Shown here piece after piece: positions 8,466 to 42,735 of a stretch of DNA of 43,149 bases (positions are counted from its first letter, which is position 1; every line of letters starts with the position of its first letter). The DNA lies in assembly GCA_002256025.1 (NCBI GenBank), contig NKIB01014458.1, positions 1 to 43,149 on the forward strand, written 5' to 3'. The stretch is from Asterionella formosa (taxonomy: Eukaryota). The position numbers were made by a program, and so were the translations under genes. The notes below the pieces were generated by a model. The model ran no database searches and had not been told where the DNA came from. It worked only from the letters and a program-made list of their open reading frames with translations.

Positions 8466-8985
8466 TTGGAATGGATGAAATTCAGTTCAAATCAAGTTAC
8501 CGTTGCTGATAAATTTTCAAAATTTTTAAATGAAGTGATCTGTTCAAGAAAGCTCATCCATGTAGTTGTGACTCACAGTCAAATGTTTCGAATGAGTCGA
8601 ATGAGTCGACTTTGATGTAGCAAGCTCTCATCAACCACACGTTCAACGTTATTACTCCAGCTATAATGAGCTGAACGATATAGGCTTATTCGGAATACCA
8701 ATAGTTTGAAATGAATGATCTATGGTTATAGAACTATGATCAGTAAGTGTGCGATAGACATGGGCCTATCTATGAATGTATGTTTCTAGAAATGCAAACA
8801 GCATTTGGAGAATAGTTTGTTTGTTTATTCAAACCAAAGAGCTTAAACTATTTTAGTAACTCACAATAAGAATATAGAAATGAATGTCTCTATCTATAGC
8901 CTTCTTTGTCTGATGATGTAGATCTATCTAAGAAGGTAATACTTTAACAGTGATATACCATGAAAAATGATAAGAACGGCCCTAA
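8466..8985 (+). repeat. Terminal segment of a PIF/Harbinger-like element, second copy at about 17004-17109
   Basis: TTGGAATGGATGAAATTCAGTTCAAATCAAGTTACCGTTGCTGATAAATTTTCAAA (about 8466-8521) and AGTGATATACCATGAAAAATGATAAGAACGGCCC|TAA (about 8949-8985) both align with 17004-17109. The end GCCC|TAA fits a Harbinger GGGC-type TIR with a TAA target site. Confidence 0.6.
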
Positions 8986-9363
8986 GCAATAAATGCAGGA
9001 ACCTTAATATGTATTATCATTTGATAACAGAATACACCGGTACGCCTTGAAACAGATTTTTACTGTAAATGGGCCAACTTGATTTCACATTTACATTCAG
9101 TACCATACACATTATGCTTCAAGAATACAAGCTAAGAATGCTGAAGTGTCACAGTCGTGGTTGCGACGATAGTTTAAGCTTGAAGGTTGTGAACAGCAAA
9201 TGCTTTGGTAGTTCGAATTATCTGGTACATACAGCGAAGTAAATATCAATTGAATTTACATATTATGATGTTAAGCAAAAATAGCATCAACTGAAATGAG
9301 AGATTCGCCATCACAAGTCCTAAACGTCCCCCCTTGACTTCTACAAGCAACCGCAAATCGAAA

Positions 9364-11466
9364 CTAACGGCCAAAGCCGCTCACAAATGTGTCTTGAACT
9401 TTGACTCCTCCACTGGCGACAACTATGTCCCCATCGTCACGAAAGTCCAATGATAAATCGATGTCCTCGTCCTCCATATCCACAACAATATCCTCGTCTT
9501 CTCGGCTAATGGCAGGAAGGGGCTGGATCCCATTGCGCTGGAAATAACTCACCAACTGGGTCGGAATCTCGTGCAAGGTAGCGGCGCTTAAATCATCTGA
9601 GTTTCTGCAGTGTTCGTTGAATTGAACAAACTGTGCAATATCAGGTGTACCCGGTGGTTGCGAGTGATCGTCCAAAAATCGCATGGAACTGAAGTCGGCA
9701 TTTCCGACACCAACAATTACAATCGAGAGTGGAGCATCGGAACAAGCGTTCATCGCGTTAGCCGTTTGCTGCATATCGGAGACAGCTCCATCGGTAACAA
9801 TAAGCAAGATGCCGTAGGCTTGCTTTCCAGCGGTTCTTGCTGCTTGTTGCTGGCTTTTGGCGCGAGCTGCTGCGGTCTGAATAACTTGCGAGATGTCAGT
9901 CGGTCCCGACATGACCAAACCAGATTTAAAAGTCTGATGGTACGCGTCAATGATCCCTTGGATTCCATGGACTTCAGCAGTAGGACCGCATTGGAAGCAA
10001 TGGCGAACAACACCGCCATATTTAGCACCAAAACCAAGTACAGGATAACTTTGGTCGGAATCAAATTTGGCTGAATGAACAACATGGTTGTGAGAATGAT
10101 GATAATTACAGGCAACTCATTTGCATTTTTGAAGCCTACCTAGTACCGTGACAATTGCTTTGATGGCCTTTTCATAATCATTAAGTTGTCCATCTTTGTG
10201 CAAATAATGAAGCGTTCCAGGCTGACGAGGATCTCCATTGGAACCTGTAAAGTCAATGGCGACCGATACATTGAACTCACAGCCACCAGATACATAATCA
10301 ATAAATGTTGGTTGATTTGATGGAGATTTAAATGTTGCTGGAGCAGGTCCTGGCTTAAAAGCAACGGGAGCAGCAACCACTGCAGGGGCAGCAGTAATTC
10401 GAGTAGCCGCCATCTGTGTCGTGATCGATTCAACTCCAGCTACCTCAGCCTTCATGACAATGACTTTTCCGACATCCTTACCCTTCTGCTTGAGCACAAA
10501 TGCCTTCCCCATATCTTCTGATCCACCAGTTTCAGCCGATTTTAGTCCCTTGACACTGGTCTCAAATTGTCCCATTGGGACATGCTTTCCACTACTTTCA
10601 AAATCAAAAACAGTGACAAGGATTGGCTTGTCCAAGTCTCCTTGGCATAGACTGCTCAATGGAACAACTGCTGTTTCCCAATTAGGATTCAAGCTATCGT
10701 GTATGACCTTCGAGCGAAAAACATTGTCCCTTCGATATTGAGATATTTTGTTAGTAATTTCAAAAGTCTCAGTAGATCCAACAATGATACAACTGGTACA
10801 CTCTACTTACCAAGTGAGTCCACCAGCAGAGTCTCGTTTGCACGACAATTCAAAAAATGGATCACTTTTCTTCATAAATCCCTCAACATTCGTAAGTTTG
10901 ATTCCCTTCATCTGTAATCGCAGGAGTCCAGACCCCTGGCTCTGTGCCACATGAAGAAAGACACTACACAACAGGGCCTGTTAGGTTCCATTCGATTCGA
11001 GAAACGAGTGCAAATTCCAGGGCAACAGAAAAAAAGCAAACTTACGTTCCGCCATTCTTAAACTTTTTGGCTTTTGTGTTTCCACGGGCTCCGAGGCATT
11101 CGCCAATATCGAAAGTGGCGCTTCCCATGGGTTTATTGCTTCCCTTCCTGACTTGGTCGTACACCTGGACAGCGACAATCAAGGGTTTGCCAAGCTCAAA
11201 ATCAATGGTGAATACAGACGCCCAATTGGGGCTGAGACTATTTGCGATACTGAAAAAAGACGGCAAAGGCAGTGAGTGCATCGAGTCACACGGAGACGCA
11301 GAAGGTCAATGAAGGTTTCAAATACTCACGTTTCAGTCTTTCCGATGACTTCGGGCTTCATTCCTACCTGTGTAGATACATGAGTCACTACAGCATATGG
11401 ATCTGAAGTGCCGAAACTGGTAGTATTCTTAAGATTGGAAGCGTGAAGAGACAGCTCGACTTTCAT
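9364..11466 (-). CDS. Copine (two C2 domains + vWA domain); 5 exons (11466-11330, 11249-11046, 10963-10811, 10729-10140, 10070-9364), 596 aa
   Basis: C2 motifs SDPYAVV and KSDPFFEL, LSPNW/LNPNW; copine vWA motifs VAIDFTGSNGDPR, GFGAK, SGPT, LLIVTDG and PLSIVIVGVG. All four introns are GT-AG; exon sum is 1791 nt. Confidence 0.93.
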
Positions 11467-11639
11467 GTTGGAGATTTGGCCTTCGGTTGTTCGATTTGGA
11501 TTCTTTATGCGTCTAGGAAATCATGTGCTGTGATCCTCGCATGATGGCTGATGCATAAGAACCGTTATGCAGTATTGCATGATCGCTGATGATTTAAGGT
11601 GGGAATGGCGGCGTGATAATCGCTCACGCATGAATCATC

Positions 11640-11975
11640 ACGTGGTATCCAGGACCCTGGTACCGGTAGATACCCTGCTACATAGCTACCTGGTACCGTA
11701 TTCAATACCAGCCTAGTAATTTCAGGTGGTACCTGGTACCAGTACGTACTCATCTCTTATACCGGTATTCGGAGTCCTGGTACCGGTACCTGGTACTGGT
11801 CCCAGGCACCAGCTGGTACGACAAAAGAAGATGAATACCCGGTAGACTATCGGCATGTACTGGTTCCAGGTACCGTGTGTTCATGCCGGCTGATGGTCAC
11901 TTTTTCTCTACATAGATGGTAGTACCAGATAAGAATACTTCACTGCGGCTCCGAGTTTTTCTACGTACCCGGTAC
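11640..11975. repeat. Dense cluster of TACC(W)GGTA / GGTACC / TACCAGTA palindromic motifs upstream of copine
   Basis: Examples: CCTGGTACCGGTAG, TACCTGGTACCGTA, GGTACCTGGTACCAGTACGTAC, CCTGGTACCGGTACCTGGTACTGGT. Function unknown. Confidence 0.85.
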
Positions 11976-12548
11976 TTCATCGCGGTAATCACTTCAACAC
12001 GACTTGACGAAGACGACGGAGGGATGCAAATAACAACGGTCCATGACTCAAATCCAGTATTACCCGGTATTCAGTATTCTGGCGTTGATCATGACTTGCA
12101 ACAAAAATTCACATTTCATGGAATGCTCTTAGCAATATACTGGTAGGTAAATTGGATATAGGTCATGAATCTCCAAAGCATCATCTCAGCAATGATGAAG
12201 CTATTAATCAACATTAATGATTGTAGCCTCCTGGCTGGTACATAATATATTAGCTACCATTACATTACCATTTTCTATATGTGGTAGTTAGTAGGCATTC
12301 AAACAAAGGTCAACCTTTTATGATGAATTGGGAACTCGTCCTCCTTCTTGTACATCTAAGCCGCGTATTACGTGAAGTGACCATCATGTTAATAACCCTA
12401 GTTGATTTTGAATGGATCACATGAATTAGTTGAGAACATCAAAATGCTTACTTGAATATATCTATTTATTATCTGAATACATCACAATAATTATTTGATC
12501 AGAGTATCATGCATGCATTCCTGATCATCACTATATTACGTGATCACC

Positions 12549-12592
12549 TTCACATAATTATTTGAAATACTTCACGTAATTATTTGAAATAC
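12549..12592 (+). repeat. 22-bp tandem repeat x2 (subterminal repeat of the TIR element)
   Basis: TTCACATAATTATTTGAAATAC / TTCACGTAATTATTTGAAATAC, with further degenerate TCAC(G/A)T/TAATT copies across about 12410-12730. Confidence 0.85.
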
Positions 12593-14123
12593 TTCAATTA
12601 ATTCTGTAATTTAGATCACATTGCCTTGTAATTTTGTTCACGAAATTCTATAATATAGTTCACGTAATGTATTAAATTTGTTTACGTAATTTAAAAGTAC
12701 TATCAAATAATGTTGATTCCTAATTCAACTAGCTACCGGTACCGGTATTTCACATTACAGCCATGGGAAACAAATCTCGATATGCAATCAAACAAAGCTG
12801 TTCTATCAGAATGGAATCTTCAGTCTTGAGAAGGCATGCATTATGGCTGAGACATCTGTAAGGACATTGCAAGACAAAGAGAAGCCATTCATTCAGAAGG
12901 GAAAAATTATTCACTCTTGAACAGGCATCATTGTACGAAGTTGCAACATGAATGCATCACACACTGGATTCCTTCTTGTCCTTGAAATGACTTCTTCATT
13001 GACCTGCAAAGATTTACATAACAATAGTGTGTCAGCAATTCATATGATAGAACTAGCAACAGCAGAAAGCAACACACACATGTAGTAGTATTCAACTGTT
13101 CCTCGGGGGAGTCGAATTGAAACAACAAACCGGCAACAACCAGTCAGCACCACAACTCACTGATGTGTTCAAAAGAATGCTCCTGTTGTGAAATGGACGG
13201 CTAAAATGTAAAATAAATGAAGACAACAATAACAGAACCATGTGATTTATCGCTCGCTTTGCTGATACAATGACAAAAACTGAAGATTGAGCTTGCCTTA
13301 AAGGCCTCCATTGCGGGTCTCCATTTTGTATCATTTCACCCTCTATCACTCATGCTTTCCAAAGAACACTCCTTTTCTGAGAAGGCCCGTTCAAATGTCA
13401 AATGAATTTTGAAAACAATAGCATATCAGTATGAGTTATCCTGCGCTTGGTGATATGATAGCAAAAATAGTAAGCAAATAAATCTTACCTTAAAAGCATC
13501 GATTGCTTACGATCTCAATGTTGGTACCTGGTAGCCCTGGTACCTGGTACTGGTAGTATGTATCATAGCCCTGTGTAGGCCTTCTATACCGGTACCTGGT
13601 ATCATACCTATTCATTAGCTGAGGTCAACACACTCAGCATCACGATGCCATTCCAGACATATTCACAATACAGGTATGTTATTCATATTTTTTGTATCTT
13701 TAGAATTCTTACGAAATACAGTTTATGTAAAAGAATAAGAGAATTGATATTGGATGCTGACAATATCGATGGTAAGGATGATTGTTGATATGCTTCATGC
13801 ACCCAGTTGCTGACAACCACATCACTTCGATTTTCTCCATCAATTCATGCCCGATAGCACTCCGAAGATTTGCAGTCGATAAAACACAATAATTCGAATA
13901 GATGTTTAGTTTATCATTTCAAAATCAATATTAAATGATTCGTTCCATACCTGTTTTGTGCTCATTAGGGTTAGTCGTTGCTTACATCACGAATCATGTC
14001 GCGATATTTCTCGAGATCTATTTCGCTCCGTTTTTCTCAATCAATTAAGGGCAGATTGCAATCAAACAATTTGTAGTGAAGTTTTCTTTCGCAATGATTT
14101 ATCCTCTAAAAAATTTATCTTTA

Positions 14124-21615: not shown

Positions 21616-23302
21616 GGTCGAGGGGGTTGTCGTTGGGATAGCAACAACAGAAGTACTACCTGGTATATGATCCAGATATGAGGACAAGGAAGGATCTTGT
21701 CCAATTCACTGCTACCGGTAGCAAAATCGGTTGGGTGGGCTGCAGGGCTGCAGTAGCAATGTATGCGTATGCGAACCCTGTTGTTCATTGCTGTTGCACA
21801 ATGGGCAGCTGTTAGTTTCACAAATGTAGGACGTACTTCGTCCGTTTTGGGCTACGCACTGATACATACGGACGATGCTGACGACAACAAGATTCGGGTA
21901 AACCACCATGTGCAGACAAAAGTGCTGAGGAGTAGCAGGCATTTAGCCAAGCATTTGAGTCGGGATTTAGACGTCATGAATCGTCACGAAGGCGATAATC
22001 TTGCAGATTCGTCCTTGTTCTCTACCAATGCCTCCGCCTAACCGCAGGCACAACAATTTATCTGGAAAAAGGGATCAGGCCAATGAGGGGGACGAATCTA
22101 CAAAAGGCTATCAAGGAGTGGCTGTCCCGGACGCTGTACAGAAACATTTAATGCCATGATGTACCTGGTACGCAAGTACCAGTTTCATAGCGAGAAATAC
22201 TGTGTGAGAGCCACAACAATGCTGACAAGGCCAAAAATACCAGAAACATCAAATGAAACTACCAAGTGCACCACAATGGCACATCAGGCCAAAAGTAACC
22301 AACATGTGTAAAGACAACCCCATACCACTATTGGTCTACTCTTGTGAGCAGGTTCTAGATCTAGCTATAGATGTGGTGAGACTTGACAAGTTTACAAGCA
22401 AAAAGAAATGCCAAGACTAGAGAACTGCTCCTCTCTAAACAGTGCTAGAATAGTTCTTGCCTCATTGCTTACCAGGACTTGTCTGCTGGTATAGTCCACT
22501 CAGTACCTTAGTAGTCTAGAGGTAGTCAAGTGCAAGTGGCTAGTGGCTCTATTCCTTAAACTGGTAGAATATAAGCTCTACTCTACATAGAGTATACATG
22601 GTATGCTACCACAGTCTTCCTGAGAAATGGAAATTTCTAGACTGTATCAGCTGAGATCAACATTCGGTTTCCTACACTAGGTCTTAGAAGCCACAGCTTG
22701 CAAAACGAATGTATTAACTACTGTCAGTAATCCAATTGTCATCAGAGGGATACCTGGTACTACCAGGGTACCGCAAAGTGGCCAATAGCAATGCTCTTGA
22801 ATCTTTAGATGTTGTCAGTGACAGCATATGGTATCGTAGGTTGTAGGGATACTATCCAAAAAGTCTTGACTCCATCATTGTCGGTTTCCATCATGTCAGG
22901 TAGCTTGACTAAATAGGAATGGTAGCTAATGTTGTGGCATTGCGCAAGTCGATTGATTCCTGTTTATTTCTACGGCAAGTAGTTGGGCGTTTCGGAGAAA
23001 GGTACAGCACAAACTAAATTAGCAAGGAATGGTATCAAAAGTATTGTACCCTTAATTTTTTTGCGATAGAAGTGGAGAAATGGTAACGCTGCCGAATAGT
23101 TCCTCCTAACGTTATTGCAAATTAATAGTATTAAATGTTCAAAGGGATTTAAAATCGCGCCATGCGATGTATTCATAGTAGAGATGTATAAAGCATAAAT
23201 TACCCGATGATTCTGTATACCAGTAGCCACCAAGGCTATTCACGAAGATTTGATATGTGTCATAACACTGGTATTGCAGTATAATTGTACAGCGTCGGGA
23301 GT

Positions 23303-25246
23303 TCACTTGTAAGCGATACTTCTGTTCGCCAAGCCATAGCTTACAGCCTTCTTCCAATAAATGTCGATATCGTCCAGATTTATTTCTCCTACTTCGTCTG
23401 TTTCCCTATGATCTGTTAAGTTTAAGAGGCAACCGGCGTGGCAAGGGTATATATGATTCTGATCGAGACTCATACATGTGTCAAAGGGGCCCTTCAGAAA
23501 GGCTTTAGGTGAATCCGTCATTTGCAGCAAACCGATTTGAATATGTTGGATCCATGTGCAATCTTTCACGTCAATGGGGATGAAAGGAACCGTGTAGTCC
23601 AAGATGAAGCGGGTCGCGCAACTCTTGGAGCTTCCTTTGAATGCCTTGGCATACAAATGCCCACTGTAGAATTTACCAACAACAACAACTTTGTAGTTAA
23701 CTATTTCCTGCATATCACTTGTGTACGAGACATTGGGAAGATCCATAGCGGCATAGCTGGAGAAAATACGAATTTTCAACTTGGGTCGTGCCATGAGTAG
23801 CAATTGGCACACGGCGGTTCCAACCTTTCCGTTGGCACCGATGAAGAAAAATTCTTCCAGATCGGGAATATTCATTATCTGTTGGAACACAGATGCTGTA
23901 GTCATCGTGTCACCAGTCCAGATGCGGATATTCTTGTCCTTGAGGAAAGGGTCTTGCTTGATGAGTTCGACAATGACAGACCCACCGTCATTGATCTGTT
24001 TCATTTTATTCAAATTCCCCAGACCAAAAAACCTAGTCCCACACCTTGTATTCTCCTCTCGGATTAACCGGATGATATCACGGTTAATCCCGTCATACTT
24101 CTTGGGTGAAAAGTAGTCCAAAGGAGTTCGGAGGACGCATATTACACGTGCAATGTACCGTTGTTTGACGAGGAAACGGGAGCAGGAGTAGCTGGTCATG
24201 AACAACCTTGTCAAGGAGCACACGATGTGCATGATATAGAACTCCAACTCAATCGGCAAACACGTGCGACGGTAGGAATCGTAGACGTTGTAAATTGAAA
24301 ATTCAGGACAGGTCAATAAATGTCCGATTCCAGCGTTGTGACCAACGAAAACGAAATCCTGCTGTTTTGGAGGTAACATCAGCTCATCTTTCTTCTTGTA
24401 TTCTCGGTATGTTCCAAAGAGGTGGTCCCAGATTGGCATGAAGAGCGAGTAGTTAGCATTGAAGTAAGCATGGTGGCCGAGGTGCGTCTCTGGGGTGTAG
24501 AATAAGTACCGAAGAGGAGAATATCGATGTGTAAATGCCCAATGTCGAACACGGATGTTCGTGTGCCCGAAGGCGTTGATAAGGTCGAAGCAAATCAAGT
24601 ATGCCCCAATGACTGCCCAATGTTGGTGACCACCAGTGAAGAATGGCACAAAAAAGGCGGGTCCAAAAGTGGCGATGTAAACGAAGTGTTCCTCAAAGTT
24701 CTGAACAAGCGATGTCGATGGAGTGGTGTTGATGGACAAGTGGTGAAAGCCATGCATGTACTTCATCTGGCGAGGAACATGAAGCCAGCGATGAACGGCA
24801 TAGTATAATGGCTCAACAAAGAGAACATGGCACCAAAATGTCTTGATAGCGCATGTGCTAATTGCTGTCGAGTCAGAGAAGAACATCCCCGGAAATACTA
24901 TCTGTAAAGCCACCTGTGTCCACATATGAAGCACACACCCAACAAGATAGTCATCTTTCTCTCGCTGGAGCTGTTTCTGAGGGATCCTGTTGTTGTAGTT
25001 ATCTTTATCTACGAAAATGTAATGGAGCGATAGGGTCAAATGGGTGGAAATTATACGTAGGATGCCAATGAGAAAGATTGGGAAAACAGGAGTAAAGTAG
25101 CAGAACAGCAATGGCGCCAAGAAGAACAGAACATCATAATCGGTGTTTCGCTTCGTCGCTGAGTGTGTTGGAATGAATGTTTGGGACTTGATCTCGGCTG
25201 TTGGTGCCGTCGGGTCGCTGAGATTCGCTTTTGGTGGCCTGCACAT
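23303..25246 (-). CDS. CER1/3: CER1/CER3-like protein: N-terminal fatty-acid-hydroxylase (His-box) membrane domain + C-terminal WAX2/acyl-reductase-like domain
   Basis: YYAVHRWLH, HGFHH, DLINAFGHTN, YTPETHLGHH and NYSLFMPIWDHLFGT, then LGNLNK...NDGG, TGDTMTTA, IGANGKVG and YPCHAG. Same order and spacing as plant CER1/CER3. Intronless, 647 aa. Confidence 0.9.
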   Translation of the reverse strand: MCRPPKANLSDPTAPTAEIKSQTFIPTHSATKRNTDYDVLFFLAPLLFCYFTPVFPIFLIGILRIISTHLTLSLHYIFVDKDNYNNRIPQKQLQREKDDYLVGCVLHMWTQVALQIVFPGMFFSDSTAISTCAIKTFWCHVLFVEPLYYAVHRWLHVPRQMKYMHGFHHLSINTTPSTSLVQNFEEHFVYIATFGPAFFVPFFTGGHQHWAVIGAYLICFDLINAFGHTNIRVRHWAFTHRYSPLRYLFYTPETHLGHHAYFNANYSLFMPIWDHLFGTYREYKKKDELMLPPKQQDFVFVGHNAGIGHLLTCPEFSIYNVYDSYRRTCLPIELEFYIMHIVCSLTRLFMTSYSCSRFLVKQRYIARVICVLRTPLDYFSPKKYDGINRDIIRLIREENTRCGTRFFGLGNLNKMKQINDGGSVIVELIKQDPFLKDKNIRIWTGDTMTTASVFQQIMNIPDLEEFFFIGANGKVGTAVCQLLLMARPKLKIRIFSSYAAMDLPNVSYTSDMQEIVNYKVVVVGKFYSGHLYAKAFKGSSKSCATRFILDYTVPFIPIDVKDCTWIQHIQIGLLQMTDSPKAFLKGPFDTCMSLDQNHIYPCHAGCLLNLTDHRETDEVGEINLDDIDIYWKKAVSYGLANRSIAYK

Positions 25247-26630
25247 GGTTAACGCTTTGTTAGTCTCCCGCGCACAACAGCCAATTCACAAATTAGTGGG
25301 AGAGTTCTGTGCAAGGTCTATTACGTATGCGTAAGCGCACGAAAATGAGGTGGACGAAATGACGAGGTGGGAGTCCTCCCTATTATTCCACCAACACCAG
25401 CCATGTATTTTACATTCATCCAGCACGTAATCGTAGTCTGGTAAGTACCAGTACTCCTTTCATATATGAATTGTAAAAATGTGATTGGAGGGAGATCCTC
25501 TTCAACAGAAACGGAAGTGCGTATTCGTACGTACGTGTCGAAAAAATATGTAAATGCCGATATCTGATAAATACAGCTTGTTATGAAAGACTGGTATGTA
25601 GGAATAAACATACCGGTAGCAACCGTTTGGGTAGGCCACTATCGTGACGTACAGGTATGTAAACTGATTGATTACCCGGCAGGTAGGTGTTACTCCGTAC
25701 GTATTGTACCCTGGTACAAGGTACCACCCCTTGGATCCACGACAACGATCCACTCATCAGGAAGTGTTTTTACCGCGGTTTGCACACTATTTAGCGATGA
25801 GTCATCGCAAGGTCCTCCCAGCAGGCTCGGCCTACGGGTACCTGGTACTCCAGGGCACTGATACCTGGTATTACCAGGTCTTCCATTTGTACGATGGCAA
25901 ATGATGATTGCAATGGAGCATGGAGAAGTCGTCATTGACATCAGATGCATACAGTATACTGTAGTGTAAACAAGCAAGCAATCTACTGATGTTACGGGTA
26001 CAGCAATTAACTCAACAGCCATGTGAGCCGCAAACAACTCGTTATTATTGAGTACTTGAAGTAGTATTTTATTGAATGCTGAGGAAGGCGGAGTCCCACC
26101 AGGTAAACAGTAAAACTGCCCAGACTACCCCAGAAGACTAGTGGTATGGTAAAAACTTTTCTAGCACATAATTGATTTGCTTTACTTTGTTTGTTAATAG
26201 TTGCTTTTATAAGCAAGTGAGCTTACTAATGTAAATGTCCATTGAAATGTATAGTTTTGAAAATTCAAAGCTCATGAATGTTTCAAAATAGAGGTGATCT
26301 TAGGAGGCGAGCTTCTTTTTTGCTCTTCCTAACTTAACTGAGATTAAACTACATCTCCTTCCTAAATACACTGATTTCTTATCTTGACATGTCTCAACAA
26401 TAGTCCCAGATGTTGTTTGATCAAAGGCTGCTTACAGAATTCTTTTGATCAAACTATATTGTATTTATTTTCCTTCTTGACTGTTCCTAGATTAGGCGGA
26501 CATGTCTGCCATTTCTTGTGGTATTGTCTTATTGCTCGAATTTGACCTTGACTTGTTTGCAATGAATCTAGTACTAGCACATCGTCCCTCTAGCTATTCA
26601 AGAAGAATGACGAAGTGTGGACCTTATTCC

Positions 26631-32880: not shown

Positions 32881-34587
32881 CTAGCTTGTAGAGCAAGTAC
32901 ACCGTTGTTCCACTCTCAAGTCAACCCCACCTTGTGGTAGCACGGTGAAACCTGCTTGCATATCCTTGAGCAAGTCCTGGGGATTGATTCCTTTCGTAAG
33001 TCTATCATCCACAAATCGATATTGCTGCAACAATCGAGCCAGAATAACTCGAAGGACCACGTGTGCCAATGGTTGTCCGACACAGTTTCGAGGACCTGCT
33101 GCAAATGGCATGTAGGCTCCGAGGGGCGGCGTACAGTGGAACCATCGCTCTGGATCAAACTCATTGGGTCGCTCCCATATTTCCGGATTCCGATGAAGGC
33201 TATAAATCCACACACAAGCCATGGCACCCTTGGGTAAGGTTACAGACGTTGTTGTGGTATCTTGGATAGTGATGGGGAATGGCAGGGCTCTAACCACCAA
33301 GGGTGCAACAGGATACAACCGCATCGCTTCTTTAAGGACTGCATCCAAGTAGATCCATTTGGATACTTCTTTTTTCGTCAAAAATGCGCCATCACTAGTA
33401 GTTCCTATGACCTCGGCAGCGGCTCGATCTTGAATGCCGGGATACAAAGATAACAAGTGCAAAGTCCAAGACAAGGTTGCTGCACTTGTGTCTTGTCCGG
33501 CAAACAACAACGTAATTGCTTCGTCCAAGATGTCCTTTGGTGTGGAATGACTCGGACGGTCCCTCAACATGGCTAGAGGTGATGAAGGTTTGGCCGAATC
33601 AATGGCTTGCTGTGCAAAGGCTCGAATAGGACCCATGGTGCGTTCTTCCTCTCTGTACATGGCGGAGCAAGTGCTGTAAATCCACCTCGGCAGCAAGAAC
33701 CAAAATGAACGAGATTGAGCAAGGATAATCATTCGAATGTGTGTAACTGATGTGAGGTATCGTTTCAGTATGCTGGATTTTGCTTCGTCTTCGTTTTTTG
33801 TTGATTGCGAGTTTTTAAGTGAGGACAACGACGAGACCGATGAGCTATCCAGAACATGCGCCAAGGCATCGTCCTGTGCAAGTGATACATCCTCTGGTCC
33901 ATTTTCCTGGTGTGTTATCAGCCTGTATATTAGACCAATAGTAGCTCGCTGGATTATTGGTACAATATTTAAAGCTTGCGTCTCACTTAGTTCGTTCATG
34001 ACTTGCTTGGCGGCTCGGTTGGCTTCTCGTTCCAGACGCAAGCTATTTTGTGATTTTGGGTTTGATATCCCCCGTAGGAGGCAGTGAATGACAGAAGCCC
34101 TCTTTTCTCGCCATGCCTCTCCATCTGCTGTAAACACTCCCTCTCCACTAAAGTTCTTAAAATGATTATATGCTGGTCGCTTTATTGCGCCACAGCAGGA
34201 CGAGGGTCGTTCACGTTGTCGTCGTTGGCCGTTCGTTTGCTGCTCACTAGCAGTTCCAATCAGGACAGCTCTGACCGGTGTGGGGTGAGCCATATGTACC
34301 ACAGCTGTGGAAATTCCGTATACAGTTCCATACATACCGAATGGCCCTTTCAATCGCCTCATCCGAGGCAGGATGCCAGTGATGGTGGATGGTGCCATTT
34401 TCGAAGCGTCGGCGTGGTTCCCAGGGTGATAGTTGACAAAGCGGGGCCTCCATGTCACGGTCGGTAACTGACGCAACTTGTATTTTGTGTGACTGTGCAC
34501 GGCTATTAGTGCTATTGTAATCAAGATGAGCAACACCATGGCCCAGTAGAGCCAGGGGTCGACCACAAGTTCCATCAACAGAACCAT
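32881..34587 (-). CDS. Cytochrome P450, membrane-anchored (CYP4/CYP97-clan-like motifs; family unassigned)
   Basis: N-terminal TM helix; GVFTADGEAWREKR (C helix), LFAGQDTS (I helix), EAMR (ExxR), FDPERW, and the heme motif PFAAGPRNCVG. Start placed at ATG 34587 (568 aa); the track begins at a TTG. Confidence 0.95.
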   Translation of the reverse strand: MVLLMELVVDPWLYWAMVLLILITIALIAVHSHTKYKLRQLPTVTWRPRFVNYHPGNHADASKMAPSTITGILPRMRRLKGPFGMYGTVYGISTAVVHMAHPTPVRAVLIGTASEQQTNGQRRQRERPSSCCGAIKRPAYNHFKNFSGEGVFTADGEAWREKRASVIHCLLRGISNPKSQNSLRLEREANRAAKQVMNELSETQALNIVPIIQRATIGLIYRLITHQENGPEDVSLAQDDALAHVLDSSSVSSLSSLKNSQSTKNEDEAKSSILKRYLTSVTHIRMIILAQSRSFWFLLPRWIYSTCSAMYREEERTMGPIRAFAQQAIDSAKPSSPLAMLRDRPSHSTPKDILDEAITLLFAGQDTSAATLSWTLHLLSLYPGIQDRAAAEVIGTTSDGAFLTKKEVSKWIYLDAVLKEAMRLYPVAPLVVRALPFPITIQDTTTTSVTLPKGAMACVWIYSLHRNPEIWERPNEFDPERWFHCTPPLGAYMPFAAGPRNCVGQPLAHVVLRVILARLLQQYRFVDDRLTKGINPQDLLKDMQAGFTVLPQGGVDLRVEQRCTCSTS

Positions 34588-34857
34588 GATAAAAATACAA
34601 GGCTTGGAACAAATGAGAAGCGGGACAAAGTGATTGGAACAATCGATTGTGACCAGCCAGAGTTTGCAATGAAATCTGGTGGTGATTAGCGATCTATTAG
34701 AATGTGACCTTCCTTCGGGTTTCAAACTCTTGGTTGTACCTGGATCAAATGAGCATGGGTGAAAGTTGATTCGATCAATAGATTAGTATATCATCGATCG
34801 GCATACATGTATGATTTGATGAAAACAAAGAATCGTAATCACTCAATTTGTTGACCT

Positions 34858-35395
34858 GTGGTACCATGGTACCAGGTACCAAGTGATTCCTGGTACCTGG
34901 TACTATACCACTCCACCTTCAGCCATTTCTTGTGTCACGTGTATTTAAGTAGTATGATGGAGGTATGCGCGCATGCATGCCCATCCGTGTACGTGGCGTA
35001 CCTATATACCCCGGAGAGCAGTATGCCAGTACATTATCTTTGTATACTATGTTACTACTGTATAGTTTGTACGCTGGATCGTCGTCCATTTCTTCGTCGA
35101 CGGTGATACCACCGCCTGCGCCCAGCACCAAGCTCTCCTGGTTACTCCTGGTATCAGGTACCGGTACCTGGTACAAGGTACCAATACTCTACCAGTAGCT
35201 ACGTAGCTATGGCCGTGCTACGGTGAATTTTCCTCGAGGACAATAAGGAATGCATGGCAGCATCATTGTACGTACCTCCACTAGTAGCAGGGACTGTACT
35301 GAAGAAACATTTTTTCTTTCTCATACAATGTGGGAACACCGCAAGATCCAAAAACTGTGTTAACTGCACTACCTGGTACCTGGTACCCTACGGGT
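34858..35395. repeat. TACC(W)GGTA / GGTACC motif clusters in the divergent P450-AKR intergenic region
   Basis: GGTACCATGGTACCAGGTACC (34860), CCTGGTACCTGGTAC, CAGGTACCGGTACCTGGTACAAGGTACC (about 35155), TACCTGGTACCTGGTACC (about 35370). Confidence 0.85.
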
Positions 35396-35511
35396 AGGCA
35401 GATCCAGCCATACATTCCAGTACACACAACCAACGAAGCACCAACAGCAAAGAACAAGAAATTAACAGTATTATCATCCAGCCTTCTTATCGTGAACGTC
35501 ACCAAGCAGCC

Positions 35512-36480
35512 ATGGCAGGTGCTTCTGACACCATTGGCGTAGGCTTCGGCACAGCCGCACTCGGCGACCAATGCCACAATGTCGTTTTAATGGCACTAAA
35601 GGCGGGATTTCGTAAATTTGATACTGCCGAAGCGGACTGGTGGTACGATCAAAAGGGCGTGGGAACCGCGTTACAAGCGTTTTTCCGTGAGTGTTCGGAC
35701 GAGCAGTCCTGCGCGAGGACATGTGCTTCGGAGGATATTCGAGTATCCACCAAAATACCTCCCTGGTCATTGACTTCGGCATCGAATATTCGTGCGAACG
35801 CCGCGGCGAGTCGAGAGGAACTTGTTGGTTTCTGTCGTGATGTTTCCATTCACGACGCAAGTAATGGTGTTGTGGAAGATCGTCCCTTTCCTCTAGATGT
35901 TTACTACATTCATGCACCAGAGTGCTGGGATGGATGGCACCATCGTTGTAATAATGCGCCTCCTGCCCTTGCCTTGCGAGATTCTTGGATGGCAATGGAG
36001 GCCGTCGTTGGGATCGATCACTCCGCACGTCGAATTGGCCTTTCTAATGTTTCCCCACACCAACTCCGAGACATTATTCAATTTGTCAAGGAACGCCCGA
36101 CAGAATCTTATCCACCTCCAAGAATGCCGGACGTATTACAAGCGTTTGCAGATCCGCTCTCACCCAGCGAGGAACTGCGACGGATTTGCGAATTTCATGG
36201 CATTGAATTCGTTTCCTATTCCACATTGGGCACACAGCATCAAGGTGCAAATGAAAATTCCAACCCTGTGTTGACTAGCGATATTGTCCGAAGTTTAGCA
36301 CAACGACATGGGCGGAGTGTGGCAGAAGTTGTCCTGAGTTGGGCCTTGCAGAAAAATATGAGTGTCATTCCAAGGTCGACGAAGGAGCACCACATTGCCG
36401 AATTGGCCAACCTTTTATCGCAGCCTCCCTTTTTGAGTCCAGAAGATTTGGAAGCTATTGATTCTATGAAGTTAAATTAG
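35512..36480 (+). CDS. Aldo-keto reductase
   Basis: VGFGT, GFRKFDTA...Y (Asp/Tyr), VSTK (Lys), YYIHAP (His), RIGLSN, SYSTLG, LSWALQ and VIPRS. Carries Cys-containing insertions. Confidence 0.92.
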   Translation: MAGASDTIGVGFGTAALGDQCHNVVLMALKAGFRKFDTAEADWWYDQKGVGTALQAFFRECSDEQSCARTCASEDIRVSTKIPPWSLTSASNIRANAAASREELVGFCRDVSIHDASNGVVEDRPFPLDVYYIHAPECWDGWHHRCNNAPPALALRDSWMAMEAVVGIDHSARRIGLSNVSPHQLRDIIQFVKERPTESYPPPRMPDVLQAFADPLSPSEELRRICEFHGIEFVSYSTLGTQHQGANENSNPVLTSDIVRSLAQRHGRSVAEVVLSWALQKNMSVIPRSTKEHHIAELANLLSQPPFLSPEDLEAIDSMKLN

Positions 36481-36759
36481 ATTCTTTTCCTTCTCCATGA
36501 GTGTCACTCGGACTCCTCGAACCGAGTCGTATGTAGCATTGTTATCTGATTGCAAATGTCGTGTTGTCGTCATTCACGATGGAGTTGCGTCATTAGGGAC
36601 TTGCTGACGTCCCAAGTGGAACAACATCGTGCGAGCCGCGTCGTCCTCGCGCTGCTTTGTTGCTGTTGGTCAACCACGAATGCTTCTTGCGCCATCATGA
36701 GACGACATCATTTGAGATGGTGCCCTCTCAGATTCGGTCAGTCGGCCGTCCGCCGTGAA

Positions 36760-36940
36760 TGCAGTACCAGGTACAGGACAAGACATCATGTGCTACTGGA
36801 GTACCTGGTACCTGGTATCAGGTACACCGTACCAGGGTAGAACTGTTCACTCGGAGTACTACTACCGTAGACTATTTTATTGTACTTAGGATTCGTACCG
36901 GTACTATCTCTATTGGACACTACGTGGTTGGTACCACCAC
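36760..36940. repeat. TACC(W)GGTA / GGTACC motif cluster upstream of ABCF
   Basis: GTACCAGGTAC, GTACCTGGTACCTGGTATCAGGTAC, GTACCAGGGTA, GTACCGGTAC, GGTACC. Confidence 0.85.
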
Positions 36941-37094
36941 CACCACCAGAAACAAACAACAAGCCAACACGAAGGTAACGAAAATATGGTTCACAGCAAG
37001 AACGACCGAAACAACAGCGACTCATTGTTGCATTTGCCTTGATTCCCTCCACCTGACTACCTGCAATTAAAGGATATCGCTCCATCTCTACAAC

Positions 37095-39456
37095 ATGTCG
37101 AAGTGGAACGAGAAAAAGGCCAAAAAGGCCGAATTCGCCATGAATAAGGAGCTGGAAACTGCGGGGGAGAGCATTGAAGACAAGCTGGCCACTGATACTC
37201 GTGATGCAGCCATGGGCAAGGGAGACGAAGAGCTGTACGAGAAGAAGCTTTCCAAGGATGAAAAGAAGGCATTGGCCAAGGCGAAGCGAGATGCTAAGAA
37301 GAAGGTACGTTGCTGGATGACCATGTGAGTGTCGGCAAGGACTCATTCACCCCCACTGACAGAGCCAACGAATCTCCGAATCCACAGGCCAAGGGGAGCG
37401 ATAAGGACGACGACGACAAGCCGCTAGAGGAGGAGAAAAAGTCAGAAGACTTGTTTGATACTTCCAAAATGACATCGAAAGAAAGAAAGCGTGCTGCGGC
37501 CTTGGACAACCTCACGGCGCAGGATATTATTGTCACGTATGAAGCCAAAAAGGGAAAGCTGCACGAAAACACGCGTGATATCAATGTCAGTGGAGTAACC
37601 GTGACCTTTCACAGTCGCCCGTTGATTGAAGATACGGAAGTTGTTATCAACTATGGTAACAGATACGGGCTCATCGGACCCAATGGGAGTGGCAAGGTCA
37701 GTGTTAATTCCACCTTTTTGGAGCATTGGGGTCATCGAATATGCAGCTAACACGAGGTTTTTTTGTAACAGTCTACCCTTATGAAAGCGATCGCAGCTCG
37801 TGCTATTCCAATTCCAGATGCTATTGATATCTACTTCCTCGACGCAGAATACGAGGCATCGGATACCATTACTGCCCTGGAAGCTGTTCTGGATGTCCAG
37901 GACGAAGTCACTGAGCTGGAGCAACGGGCTGAAGCACTCAGCAATGCTATGGGCGAATGTGGTGATGATGAGGCCAAACAGGCCGCGGTACAAGGAGAAT
38001 TGGAAATGGTGTATGAAAAATTGGACGCCATGGATATTAATACTGCAGAAGCCAGAGCATCGACAATTCTACATGGTCTTGGATTTACTGCCAAAATGCA
38101 GGGCATGAAAACAAAGGAGTTTAGTGGAGGATGGCGGATGCGTGTCGCTCTTGCACGAGCCCTTTTTTTGAGGCCGGAATTTTTGCTCCTAGATGAACCA
38201 ACCAATCAGTGCGTAATTGTGACTACATGCTGCGGAGCTCGTGCATTTCTATTGTTTCTAACTTCTTTGTCTTTCCTTTGTTGTCAGTTTGGATATGGAT
38301 GCTGTCCTGTGGCTGGAGGACTACCTGTCAAACTGGGATAAGATTCTCTTTTTTGTCTGCCATTCTCAGGATTTTATGAACAATGTCTGCACTCACATTG
38401 TTCGTCTGGACCCAACGTTTAAGAAGCTGCGATATTACGGTGGGAACTACGATACCTATGTTCAGACCCGGCGTGATCAAGATATGGTTCAAATGCGTGC
38501 ATACGAGGCAGAGCAGAAAGACATTGCTGACATTAAGGATTTCATCGCCCGCTTCGGTCACGGTACCGCCAAGTTGGTCAGACAGGCGCAGTCGAGAGAA
38601 AAGCTTCTTGAAAAGAAATTAGCAGCTGGTCTTACAGAAATGCCTGAAGAGATTAAGATGTGGGATTGGACGTTCCCGGATGCTGGACAACTTCCAGTTC
38701 CAGTCTTAGCAATTGAGAACGTCACTTTCGCTTACCCCAACAGTGAATTCTTGTATAAGAATGTCGACTTTGGTATTGATTTACAAACTCGCGTGGCCCT
38801 TGTTGGCCCAAATGGAGCGGGTAAAACAACGCTGATTAAGTTGATTTGCGGAGAGCTGCTGCCCACCAAAGGTCAGATCAAGAAAAATCAGCATTTGAAG
38901 ATTTCTCGATTTACTCAACATTTCGAGGAGAAGCTTGACTTGTCAATGACTCCTTTGGACTTCTTCAAGCAAGTCGTCATGCCCACACAATCCATTGAGC
39001 AGATCAGACCGCTTCTTGGACGTTATGGATGTACTGGCGATATGCAATCTCAAGTGATGAATCAGCTCAGTGCTGGACAAAAAGCGAGAATTGTTTTTGC
39101 GATCATCGCATGGGAAAGGCCTCATTTGCTGCTACTAGATGAGCCGGTATGTATATATCTGATGAAAGTTGGATGATTGATATTTGGACAAAACTTGAGA
39201 CTTACACAAGTTCTTCTCATCCCAGACAAATCCACTTGATATGGAGTCCATTGATGCCTTGGCTCGTTGTCTCAATAGCTTCAAGGGAGGAGTCCTCATG
39301 ATTTCTCACGACATGCGGCTGATTTCTCAATGCGCCGAAGAGATTTTCATTTGCGACGAGAAGAAGATCACCAAGTACCAGGGTGACATCATGGACTTCA
39401 AGATGCATACTCGAAAAGAAAACAACAAAAAGTTGGCTCAACATATGAATGGATAA
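37095..39456 (+). CDS. ABC-F family soluble ATPase (ABCF2-like); 5 exons (37095-37304, 37388-37696, 37772-38208, 38288-39146, 39226-39456), 681 aa
   Basis: Two NBDs (GPNGSGKST / FSGGWRMR / LLLDEPTNHLD and GPNGAGKTT / LSAGQKAR / LLLDEPTNPLD), linker FIARFGHG..KL.RQAQS, no TM segments. Exon sum is 2046 nt. Confidence 0.95.
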
Positions 39457-40004
39457 TCTTCTTTATGATGGAGGGTCCATGTGCCTCATATTTTTAGTAC
39501 ATTTTTAGTCTGTGCCACAATTGTCTGGACTGGACAAATTCGTGATCCATAGGGCTCCATCAAGTTATAATCCACACAATGTGCCACTTGTTTTGATGAT
39601 GGCACTTGGGAAGAACCGGATATCTTAATTCCATTTCCCGAGACAGTTATAGGACTGCTGGTACAGTCAGGTCCTTTGTGTTTGGTGAACCACTGGGGCA
39701 GGGGTGGTGCCAGGTACCAGTACCCACACAGGTAACGGTAATCCAACCAACCCGGAAGTTGCTTTAGAAGACGGTTCATACTATAAAGGACTCGTAGCTA
39801 AATTTCTCATTTCTCACCCCAGCAGCTATGATTGAAGATGATTGTTATGGTACCTGGTACCGGTATTCCCTTCCACCTGTGCCCAATTCGGCCCCATGAT
39901 GATTGCAGGCCCCGAGACGAGAAGCTTTTGGAGTTCACTGCATAAATGTCCATTATAGCCAAGTCAAAAACGCTGCTTTGTTGCATCTCTGATAGTCCCA
40001 AACC

Positions 40005-41108
40005 ATGTCAGATTTGCCGATTAACTTGCACGAAGTTCCCATCATTGATTTGTCCGAACCCGAGGAAGCCCTAGTCGAAAAGGTTGCAAATGCTTGCTCG
40101 ACCTATGGATTCTTTCAAGTCACTTCGCACCAAGTTCCACTGGACACCTTTCGAGACCAGATGAAAGGCTATTTTTCCCTTCCCTCTGAAACCAAGCTTG
40201 GATGGAAACGCAATGAACATAACGCACGGGGTTACTTCGATGATGAACTAACAAAGCAAAAGCGAGACTGGAAAGAATGTCTTGACTTTGGCGTCCCCGG
40301 CTCTAGAGATTGGACTTTGGATGACGATGATTCTGCGAATGCATGTCTTGATGGCGTGAATATTTTTCCGTCGAGCGAACAGCTACCAGGTTTTAGACAA
40401 ATTGTTGTGGACTATTTCAACGATTGCGCAGAGCTTTCAGATCGTATTGCGAAGCTAATGGCTCTTGGTATGGGAGCTTCTCCCGAGGATGATTTCTTCA
40501 GGGATATGAAAGAAAACCATTCCTCCTATCTTCGACTGAATTACTATCGCCCTTTCCCCTCAAAAGAGGATGACCCAGCTGATATAGACAAACCTCTCGG
40601 GATATCCCCTCATCGCGACGCAGGATTCCTTACTGTGCTTGTTCAAGACGATGATTGCCACTCTCTCCAGGTTTACATGGAAGATTCCAAGGAATGGATC
40701 ACTGTTGTTCCAGTGCCTGGGGCATTGACTATAAATACTGGCGATATGGCAATGATCTGGAGCAATGGTAAATATCGGGCACCATTACATCGAGTCCGAA
40801 CGGATCCCGAGAAACAGAGATATTCCGCTCCATTCTTTTACAATCCAGGCTACTCATGTTGGGTAAAGCCATTGAATGAAGAAGTAGCAATCTACCGGCC
40901 TTGTCTTTGGGGTTACTTTCGAGCCGTACGCTTTGCAGGAGATTTGACTGATTTGGGCGTCGAAATCCAGACAAGTGATTATTTGAAAACGGAAGTTTCC
41001 AATCACATTGAAAAACAGAAAGTCTTTGAAACCAAGGCTGACTTCCGCGAATCATTTAGCGTTGCGAAATATCGCCCTTTGCTACAAAATATGAGTGAAA
41101 CATTGTAG
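40005..41108 (+). CDS. 2OG-Fe(II) dioxygenase, IPNS/DIOX_N-like
   Basis: VPIIDLS, ACSTYGFFQVTSHQV, RDWKE, LRLNYY, HRDAGFLTVL (HxD), NTGDMAMIWSNG...HRV and RYSAPFF (RxS). Confidence 0.95.
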   Translation: MSDLPINLHEVPIIDLSEPEEALVEKVANACSTYGFFQVTSHQVPLDTFRDQMKGYFSLPSETKLGWKRNEHNARGYFDDELTKQKRDWKECLDFGVPGSRDWTLDDDDSANACLDGVNIFPSSEQLPGFRQIVVDYFNDCAELSDRIAKLMALGMGASPEDDFFRDMKENHSSYLRLNYYRPFPSKEDDPADIDKPLGISPHRDAGFLTVLVQDDDCHSLQVYMEDSKEWITVVPVPGALTINTGDMAMIWSNGKYRAPLHRVRTDPEKQRYSAPFFYNPGYSCWVKPLNEEVAIYRPCLWGYFRAVRFAGDLTDLGVEIQTSDYLKTEVSNHIEKQKVFETKADFRESFSVAKYRPLLQNMSETL

Positions 41109-41111
41109 GAC

Positions 41112-42161
41112 TTAGGAGGTGGACATGACTAGAAGTTTTATCTTTTTTGCCTTCATCGATTTCAAAACATTTTGTGCTCGTGCAATTCGTCGTTTACGCC
41201 ATTCTTCATAGCGTAGTTTTTCTCCCAAAGGTAGCATCAATTCTTGATCCGGATCCAACCCGACAAATAGAGCAAGACAGCTGCGTGGATCTCCTTCTTG
41301 TGTTGGAACAACTTGATGCAGAGTCGATGGAAGAAACCCGTCCGACAACTCAGAAAGGCAATCCCCAATATTCACGACAAAGACGGGATCATCCTCCCCA
41401 ACATCACTGGGTAGTCTGACATTTACCCAGCTATCATCATCGGCACGTTGTAAGGTTGCACATCCTCCATTGTCGAATAGGAGCATGGTAATTACACCTA
41501 CATCCGTGTGAGGAGCAATGAGAGTGGTTTGGGGTTTTCGTTTGTGCCTACTGCCTACACGGTAGCCGAGCAAGGTGAGTATGGAAGTGTTGGCCACCAC
41601 ATTTGGGTTCTGAAAGACACTTATGGAATTCTTCAGCTCTGGATGGTGCACAAGCATCGCATCGCTGATGGCACGAACCACAGCCTGCGCAGTATGGTTG
41701 GCTACCTGATAGTAATTCTGGAGCGCGGATTGAAATTTCTGTGATTGGTTCCATTGAGGCCACACATTAGGAGCTAGCAACGCCGACTCGCCTCTGCCGT
41801 GTAAAGGGCCGATACGATATTTGCGAACCAAATCATTTGGGGCTTCGTCGCCCACCAACGAAGCGAAATTTTCCGTGCACATCGGCGAGTATCCTCGTCT
41901 CGCTCTGTCCTTGGTAAGACAGGAGCGGCGAACAGTTTCGTCTGCGTCGTGAAGGAACTCTCTAGTTGCGTTCAAAGCGGACCTGCAAAGACTCTTTGAT
42001 ATGCCAGTTCCAGATACATAGCAAAAGCCAGACTGTCTCAATTGATCCCAGAGGATGTTTGCGGTAGCCCTTCGCTCGTCCATCGTAGCTAAGTCGTTCA
42101 GATAGCTTGATACATTGACTGCGGTCTCATGAAAACCGGAACTTTCTGTCTCTTGAATCAT
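41112..42161 (-). CDS. 2OG-Fe(II) dioxygenase, IPNS/DIOX_N-like (divergent)
   Basis: GFCYVSGTGI, RRGYSP...EN, HTDVGVITML (HxD), VVNIGDCL...STLHQV and RSCLALF. The start is uncertain; ATG 42161 gives 349 aa, and the longer track start lies in likely non-coding DNA. Confidence 0.9.
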   Translation of the reverse strand: MIQETESSGFHETAVNVSSYLNDLATMDERRATANILWDQLRQSGFCYVSGTGISKSLCRSALNATREFLHDADETVRRSCLTKDRARRGYSPMCTENFASLVGDEAPNDLVRKYRIGPLHGRGESALLAPNVWPQWNQSQKFQSALQNYYQVANHTAQAVVRAISDAMLVHHPELKNSISVFQNPNVVANTSILTLLGYRVGSRHKRKPQTTLIAPHTDVGVITMLLFDNGGCATLQRADDDSWVNVRLPSDVGEDDPVFVVNIGDCLSELSDGFLPSTLHQVVPTQEGDPRSCLALFVGLDPDQELMLPLGEKLRYEEWRKRRIARAQNVLKSMKAKKIKLLVMSTS

Positions 42162-42735
42162 TACAGTTTTGTCTTGTTTAATGGAAGGCGACTGGCAAAG
42201 CCCACGCGGAAGATGGATCCTTCTGCAAATATTTTGCAAAGCGAGCAAAAAGTCGATGATGTCGAACTGATGGACAAAAGGTTTCCTACAATGGCGGCGG
42301 GACGGACACACAGGAGTGCTTGGCCGGAAGGTGCAGTTCGCTCGTATCGTACAGTACATACAATACTTCACCTCCGCAATCATGTGCATTTATACATCAA
42401 ATTTTCGGCTCATGATTCATGGGGCATGAATAAATAAATACACATACCGGTAGGTACCGGTACATGCTTGCATCACCAAAGAATAATCATTGATATATTC
42501 ATATGGCTGGGTGCATGATCGAAGAACATATAGTAGCTCTAGTAGGCCTGGTACAAACCATTATTTCTAAAAATATAGCTAAATATTTTGTGCGATGAAT
42601 CTCTTGTTGTTACAACCATCACCATGTTGATTGCGCTCGGTTGGTTCCCTTTGCTTCCCTTCAGTGCCTTGTGTTTTGCGATATAGTATTAGAACCGTGA
42701 TCATAGCGCTGATCGGAAACCAAACCGCAAAACAG

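Follow-up and report, generated by a model that had tools for sequence, protein, structure and literature searches.

On the evidence of sequence, structural models and analogy with characterized algal proteins, the diatom Asterionella formosa probably has a single-copy, membrane-bound bifunctional enzyme of the CER1/3 kind that would convert acyl-CoA to hydrocarbon; we place the probability of this reading at about 0.78. The gene lies in a stretch of 43,149 nucleotides (assembly GCA_002256025.1, contig NKIB01014458.1, positions 1 to 43,149 of the forward strand), referred to here as the window. By sequence, its product (P0001) is a homologue of the CER1/CER3 family, but not of the subclade whose members have been tested.

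Of 99 green algal genomes, 20 have a single CER1/3 gene, and none of these has a photodecarboxylase as well (Baca-Porcel et al., 2026; PMC13326499). In that study, proteins from Ostreococcus tauri, Prasinoderma, Klebsormidium, Mesotaenium, and the cryptophyte Proteomonas each formed hydrocarbons alone in yeast; the changes H142A, H155A, H243A, A455N/T456L, and C581A in the Ostreococcus enzyme, which alter histidines, the NADPH site, and the cysteine, each abolished hydrocarbon formation in yeast, and C21:6 was gone from an Ostreococcus CER1/3 knockout. Diatoms are named once in its main text, for alkenes, and are absent from its results and Table S1; a term search of its supplements found no diatom terms. 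A 2026 review reports two-domain proteins in cryptophytes and diatoms (PMC13510223). An initial annotation of this DNA had proposed that one polypeptide performs both steps of hydrocarbon formation. The proposal fits every feature that we tested by sequence and modeling, and the same has been shown for the five algal proteins, but its novelty was overrated: for green algae and for a cryptophyte, both the concept and the proposed experiments are already in print (PMC13326499). What remains new is a diatom protein in a separate, deep clade, absent from the set tested in that study.

A Single-Exon, Transcribed Gene

The CER1/3 gene of the window (23303..25246, minus strand) is intronless and transcribed. 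It is a single exon encoding 647 amino acids in an open reading frame without a stop. The stretch was present, whole or in part, in 20 of 22 listed runs, mainly lake and freshwater metatranscriptomes. Four of the 22 were aligned to the locus; one contig covered 23140-25322, and joints were seen in none of the four. The approximate transcript span is 23131..25322 (minus strand), with a poly(A) site near 23131 and contigs ending at 25283-25322; these ends come from assembled contigs alone, which fix neither the start nor the level of the transcript. At 23131, a contig from run X5, whose RNA status was guessed, ends with a poly(T) stretch, which fits a polyadenylated mRNA from the minus strand. 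Cover in runs X5 and X6 was limited to about 23093-25284, with DNA in the libraries still possible. Three of the four aligned runs carried a 6-base in-frame insertion behind position 24861, between the N-terminal helices and the first His box, which is probably an allele.

The neighbors of the gene in the window encode an MFS transporter, an rRNA methyltransferase, a P450 (about 7.6 kb away), an aldo-keto reductase, an ABC-F protein, and two 2OG-Fe oxygenases. We considered a biosynthetic cluster around the CER1/3 gene and found no tie between it and these neighbors. The P450, the aldo-keto reductase, the ABC-F protein, and the two 2OG-Fe(II) oxygenases, which are convergent, lie inside 10 kb of each other (32881-42389), with no link shown to CER1/3. 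Elsewhere in the window, a stretch without a long open reading frame upstream of the MFS transporter gene (22000-22289) was overlapped by a contig of run X1 at a depth of about 1145, and is either a repeat or an abundant RNA.

Two Domains with Intact Catalytic Motifs

A first homologue search gave 222 matches, the best 120 of which were listed (55-81% identity; the named ones were diatoms), and the counts of conserved residues given below refer to those 120. The initial annotation had described the histidine motifs HRWLH, HGFHH, GHTN, and HLGHH as intact, and all were found to be present and conserved. They lie in a His-box, di-metal domain of the FA_hydroxylase family, a putative aldehyde decarbonylase, whose core (residues 139-279; 24410..24832, on the minus strand like all features of the protein) matched Pfam PF04116 above the cut-off (E = 3.8e-16), the sole Pfam match in the protein at E ≤ 0.01. 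In the first His box (HRWLH, residues 152-156; 24779..24793), H152 and H156 were both conserved in 120/120. In the second (HGFHH, 165-169; 24740..24754), H165 was present in 119/120 and H168 and H169 in 120/120, while the histidines of the third (HLGHH, H255, H258, and H259 of residues 255-259; 24470..24484) were again found in 120/120. Joint alignment also identified an N-x-x-G-H motif (N224 and H228; 24557..24577) that overlaps GHTN (227-230), with asparagine at position 224 as in two plant CER1s (P0169 and P0173) and green-type CER1/3, and arginine in a plant CER3 (P0166). A scan of the genome with PF04116 gave nine matches, the remaining eight being in open frames of 289-466 amino acids.

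In an AlphaFold2 model (mean pLDDT 87.8), the N-terminal half of the protein was helical and the C-terminal half α/β. The N-terminal domain modeled alone reached a pLDDT of 93.4; its top match, a weak one, was yeast Scs7p (Z = 6.0, rmsd 5.4, 174 residues aligned; Foldseek E = 0.73). Residues 37-74 were the sole stretch above threshold in a hydropathy scan, so the predicted membrane topology depends on the helical model and on homology.

The C-terminal domain (residues 297-647; 23306..24358) is predicted to have the acyl-ACP reductase (WAX2-like) fold and is a putative acyl-CoA reductase. In the model it aligned with the cyanobacterial acyl-ACP reductase 6jzq over 307 residues (Z = 25.1, rmsd 3.8) and with the carmabin TAD domain (Z = 23.4), with a drop to 10.1 for the next unrelated structure; Foldseek agreed, with 6jzy and 6jzq at E values of about 1e-8. 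The three motifs named in the initial annotation, i.e., TGDTMTTA, GANGKVG, and YPCHAG, are all present. The first (residues 444-451; 23894..23917) starts with the TGD typical of its clade in the joint alignment, HGN being found in the plant/green type. GANGKVG (470-476; 23819..23839), a Rossmann G-x-x-G-x-x-G nucleotide-binding motif with G470, G473, and G476 conserved in 120/120, aligns with GATSKLG of plant CER3. The putative catalytic Cys602 of YPCHAG (600-605; 23432..23449), conserved in 119/120 with one homologue truncated, aligns with the cysteine of CHAG in CER3 and green-type CER1/3. As the initial annotation had held, plant CER3 (P0166) has this cysteine and plant CER1 lacks it, with serine or tryptophan at the position in the two CER1s examined (P0169 and P0173). 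In models by Kojima et al. (PMC11020225), the CER3 cysteine is reported to superpose on C294 of the reductase.

The Pfam model CER1-like_C (PF12076) did not match the protein at E ≤ 0.01, and the C-terminal domain was therefore identified from its fold and by alignment. The same model matched some members of the clade, below the cut-off; a genome scan with it gave 0 candidates, which is uninformative because it misses P0001 as well. Searches of solved structures by sequence gave 0 matches at E ≤ 1 for the protein alone, and weak Rossmann matches only for a 10-sequence profile, with acyl-ACP reductase at E = 1.7.

Conservation and Copy Number

The nine histidines, three glycines, and Cys602 were all kept in 118 of the 120 listed homologues, the exceptions being P0046 (H165N) and P0076 (C-terminus truncated). 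A second homologue search gave 210 matches, of which the best 120 were listed, and among divergent relatives all 14 key residues were present in 16 of 16 candidates tested. A feature search of the ESM Atlas ranked ECERIFERUM1-like clusters first (score 0.96), a result that we treat as a lead only. Among prokaryote genomes, 89 candidate stretches yielded 0 confirmed matches, so that nothing at this sensitivity points to a donor among bacteria.

When the assembly (68.4 Mb in 15,436 contigs) was searched with P0001, its own locus was the sole match. The plant CER3 P0166 also matched this locus alone (E = 7.2e-40, 28% identity over P0166 residues 48-621). With three candidates scored for each of these two queries and one match obtained, the paralogue count that the initial annotation had suggested came to one CER1/CER3-like locus. 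No second paralogue was found in the 15,436 contigs, a degree of fragmentation at which a partner paralogue or a photodecarboxylase could have been missed.

The bifunctional reading draws on the following observations: a CER1-type N224 and a CER3-type C602 occur together in one protein; both sets of catalytic motifs are intact and conserved among close homologues; the model of the C-terminal domain folds like acyl-ACP reductase; no partner paralogue was found; the five algal CER1/3 proteins active alone in yeast have the same motif set (PMC13326499); and, as set out below, diatoms are reported to contain n-21:6, the GMC oxidoreductases of the genome showed no photodecarboxylase orthologue, and one giant-virus copy has b5-related neighbors. 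Against it we count the low identity, the long branch described below, the silence of PF12076, the weak match to Scs7p, the other chemistry performed by the superfamily, and the fragmentation of the assembly.

A Deeply Separated Clade

Searching the 50%-cluster representatives with a profile gave 716 matches, the best 150 of which were listed. Three unrooted trees were built, i.e., a quick tree of 67 rows, a careful tree of 40 rows picked from full-length matches, and a further tree of 32 rows. They divide the family into two sides, with support of 100/100 across a long branch. On one side are plant CER1, plant CER3, proteins of Paulinella and Amorphochlora, and the green-type proxy P0193; on the other, with P0001, are diatoms, other eukaryotic contigs, and virus-like proteins, forming a clade of 26 rows in the 40-row tree (100/100). 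The branch separating this clade measures 0.84 + 0.39 changes per column, a length to be read with the tool's warning that long branches meet at the family split and with compositional bias in mind. In the two rhizarian algae on the first side, Amorphochlora (P0148) and Paulinella (P0165), CER1/3 is of the plant/green type and has both sets of motifs.

In these trees, plant CER1, plant CER3, and P0193 serve as proxies for the tested algal enzymes; in the 40-row tree, P0001 does not fall inside the plant/green clade of CER1, CER3, and CER1/3. Four of the tested enzymes are plant/green-type by eye, judging from the N-terminal 400 residues given in a supplement in which MkCER1/3 is not among the four (PMC13326499). 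The function of P0001 is therefore extrapolated across the deepest split of the family, at about 25% identity. The initial annotation had suggested such a phylogeny and did not foresee that P0001 belongs to a deep clade of its own, in which giant-virus copies are also found.

In the trees, P0001 groups with Fragilaria crotonensis KAI2497819.1 (73% identity, 100/100). The orthologue of Phaeodactylum tricornutum (XP_002182026.1/B7G477; P0375) is 59% identical with its motifs intact, and those of Seminavis, Chaetoceros, Ditylum, and Trieres belong to the same clade with all motifs intact. Annotations of the diatom orthologues go no further than predicted protein, fatty acid hydroxylase, or WAX2-domain protein, and the literature searched contained no functional study of them.

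Alternative Functions and the Likely Product

The His boxes of this superfamily are also used by hydroxylases and desaturases. Both domains of P0001 might then be active with a different outcome, the aldehyde being made and the His-box domain hydroxylating or desaturating, or forming a Δ1 alkene or another lipid. A deep split lies between the clade and every tested enzyme; its second His box in the clade is H-x-F-H-H rather than HSHHH and its nucleotide motif has glycine where the plant types have serine; the superfamily includes the hydroxylase Scs7p; and brown algae are reported to make a different (Δ1) isomer of C21:6 by a route described as unknown, though without CER1/3 (PMC13521276). However, P0001 matches CER1 in domain order and ligand set over its full length. 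Furthermore, the n-21:6 of diatoms is reported as the 3,6,9,12,15,18 isomer (PMC4483651), which is the one made via CER1/3 in Ostreococcus (PMC13326499), and we regard a different product as unlikely.

A reductase-only role like that of CER3, yielding aldehydes or alcohols with the His boxes as structural relics, had been raised as a caveat in the initial annotation. Its premise stands, in that plant CER3 retains most of its histidines although they are dispensable (PMC13326499; seen for P0166 in our alignment). As a reading of P0001 it is weakened to the point of being very unlikely: nearly all of the 120 listed homologues, and 16/16 divergent ones, retain the nine histidines together with N224, whereas P0166 has lost N224; Cys602 is kept; no CER1-type partner was found in the assembly; and loss of the His boxes, where it occurs, is plainly recognizable. 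The case in point is P0123, a single metagenomic sequence of 715 amino acids, nested among the diatom copies on a long branch, with eroded His boxes and the Gly motif and cysteine kept; by sequence it looks like a CER3-like branch of independent origin that would act as a reductase only. The converse, a CER1-like decarbonylase supplied with aldehydes by another reductase and using its C-terminal domain as a scaffold, gains something from the silence of PF12076 and from variation at residue 472 (Asn in 65 and Gly in 53 of the 120 listed homologues) where CER3 has threonine, but is the least credible of the three given the conserved glycines and C602, a cysteine missing from the two plant CER1s examined, and the strong match of residues 297-647 to the reductase fold.

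The n-C21:6 of diatoms has been known since about 1970. It is reported to be a main hydrocarbon of theirs and to derive from 22:6 (PMC4483651), and no enzyme was found assigned to it in diatoms in the literature searched. By analogy, we lean slightly toward P0001 as its source, a guess drawn from diatom chemistry; a freshwater species may use other substrates. In yeast, the enzyme would be expected to give C15-C17 products.

Photodecarboxylase and Electron Donors

Scans of the genome for the GMC family found three whole open reading frames and two fragments. Compared with a solved photodecarboxylase, the whole frames gave 115.7 bits (below the score of a non-photodecarboxylase), 49.6 bits (again behind other enzymes), and no match. 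Within this fragmented assembly, therefore, the family scans and the matches to solved structures revealed no photodecarboxylase orthologue among the GMC oxidoreductases. Thalassiosira pseudonana is reported to lack the enzyme (bioRxiv 2020.06.23.166330), and Phaeodactylum tricornutum to have a homologue (PMC6231261); Phaeodactylum would combine this with its CER1/3 orthologue, as opposed to the mutual exclusion seen in green algae. The two GMC fragments (L004:829-1428 and L017:1426-2004), both like long-chain alcohol oxidases, each adjoin the same retrotransposon-like sequence, and are apparently one copy split across contigs by an insertion. The genome also gave 39 matches to cytochrome-b5 domains, which make an electron donor possible, no more than that.

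Relatives on Giant-Virus Contigs

Single-protein queries of a viral collection gave no match. Three further scans, a profile scan among them, all led to a single contig carrying the family, the IMG/VR giant-virus contig GVMAG-M-3300023174-59 (L020). Its CER1/3 copy (L020:9953-11707; P0128) is motif-intact and 35% identical to P0001, and its neighbors include a match to an A32-type packaging ATPase (E = 3.6e-5) with an intein-like Hint/homing-endonuclease insert. From metagenomes, 80 of 86 loci were kept; the majority were eukaryotic, and one (L066) was the same contig as L020. Two others (L022 and L023) are AT-rich (GC 0.29 and 0.21) and gene-dense, with genes for a capping enzyme, MutS, RNA polymerase subunit N, PCNA, and eIF4E nearby, a gene context from which we infer that they are viral. 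L021 resembles them and is too short to judge.

On the 54-kb contig L023 (GC 0.21), three genes lie on one strand (8751-12943), encoding a FAD-binding protein, CER1/3, and a cytochrome-b5/desaturase fusion. The best solved match of the FAD-binding protein was NADH-cytochrome b5 reductase (E = 0.0011). The position of CER1/3 between a b5-reductase-like gene and a b5-desaturase fits the electron need of decarbonylation, and the trio is possibly a viral unit leading from lipid to hydrocarbon. A 2025 paper states that no cytochrome b5 reductase from a virus has been found so far (PMC11814380).

Two candidates were set aside: P0396, at first grouped as virus-like, falls with eukaryotes in the 32-row tree, and the loci of P0124 (L032 and L038) are eukaryotic. 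With P0396 taken out of the 16 candidates tested, fifteen virus-like clusters remain, with 33-43% identity to P0001 and an informative gene context in three. They require three label changes on the 32-row tree, i.e., they are not one clade, and the diatom group does not include the viral copies, so that genes may have passed between viruses and ancestors of these algae. Since the 32-, 40-, and 67-row trees are unrooted and carry no clade test, we claim no direction of transfer between virus and host. We found no description of CER1 or alkane genes in giant viruses in the literature searched, from which subscription journals were largely missing, so that absence of viral CER1/3 from print is not established.

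Discussion

In the mechanism that we envisage, Cys602 of the C-terminal domain would accept the acyl group of a Cn acyl-CoA in thioester linkage. At the Gly-rich motif, bound NAD(P)H would reduce this thioester to the aldehyde, which would be released. The aldehyde would then pass to the N-terminal His-box di-metal center, where removal of C1 would give a Cn-1 alkane or alkene, with electrons probably supplied by cytochrome b5 and its reductase. By extension from the green algal enzyme, the protein may be located in the ER as a homodimer.

P0001 resembles the bifunctional algal CER1/3 proteins in being a single-copy protein of two domains with three His-rich motifs, a nucleotide-binding motif, and the cysteine. 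It differs from them in its separate clade, in its identity of about 25% to the green-type proxy P0193, and in having TGD in place of HGN and G-x-x-G-x-x-G in place of GATSKLG. The land-plant CER1/CER3 heterodimer is homologous over the full length with the same domain order, at 21-24% identity (21-25% across plant and green-type proteins together); plant CER1 lacks the cysteine and the one plant CER3 compared lacks N224, whereas P0001 has both in one chain. Residues 297-647 share their fold with cyanobacterial acyl-ACP reductase (6jzq and 6jzy) and the carmabin TAD domain (9e4s and 9e4u), but at 12-17% identity, and are fused to a membrane His-box domain. The cyanobacterial reductase, by comparison, pairs with a separate aldehyde-deformylating oxygenase.

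The bifunctional principle as such is no longer a surprise. The CER1/3 family is nevertheless the obvious candidate for the origin of n-C21:6 in diatoms, and Phaeodactylum, a model in which genes can be edited, has an orthologue with which to address the question. Should Phaeodactylum rely on CER1/3 and photodecarboxylase alike, the mutual exclusion seen in green algae would not be a general rule. A broader picture, which we offer tentatively and do not hold to be the probable one, is that the diatom gene represents a second CER1/3 lineage, separated long ago, which makes n-C21:6, can coexist with photodecarboxylase, as in Phaeodactylum, and has been carried and diversified by giant viruses as a hydrocarbon-forming metabolic gene, once in a three-gene unit with a b5-reductase-like gene and a b5-desaturase. 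With the motif-intact copies on giant-virus contigs, the metabolic genes of these viruses would then extend to hydrocarbon synthesis, and infected plankton would form hydrocarbons under viral control.
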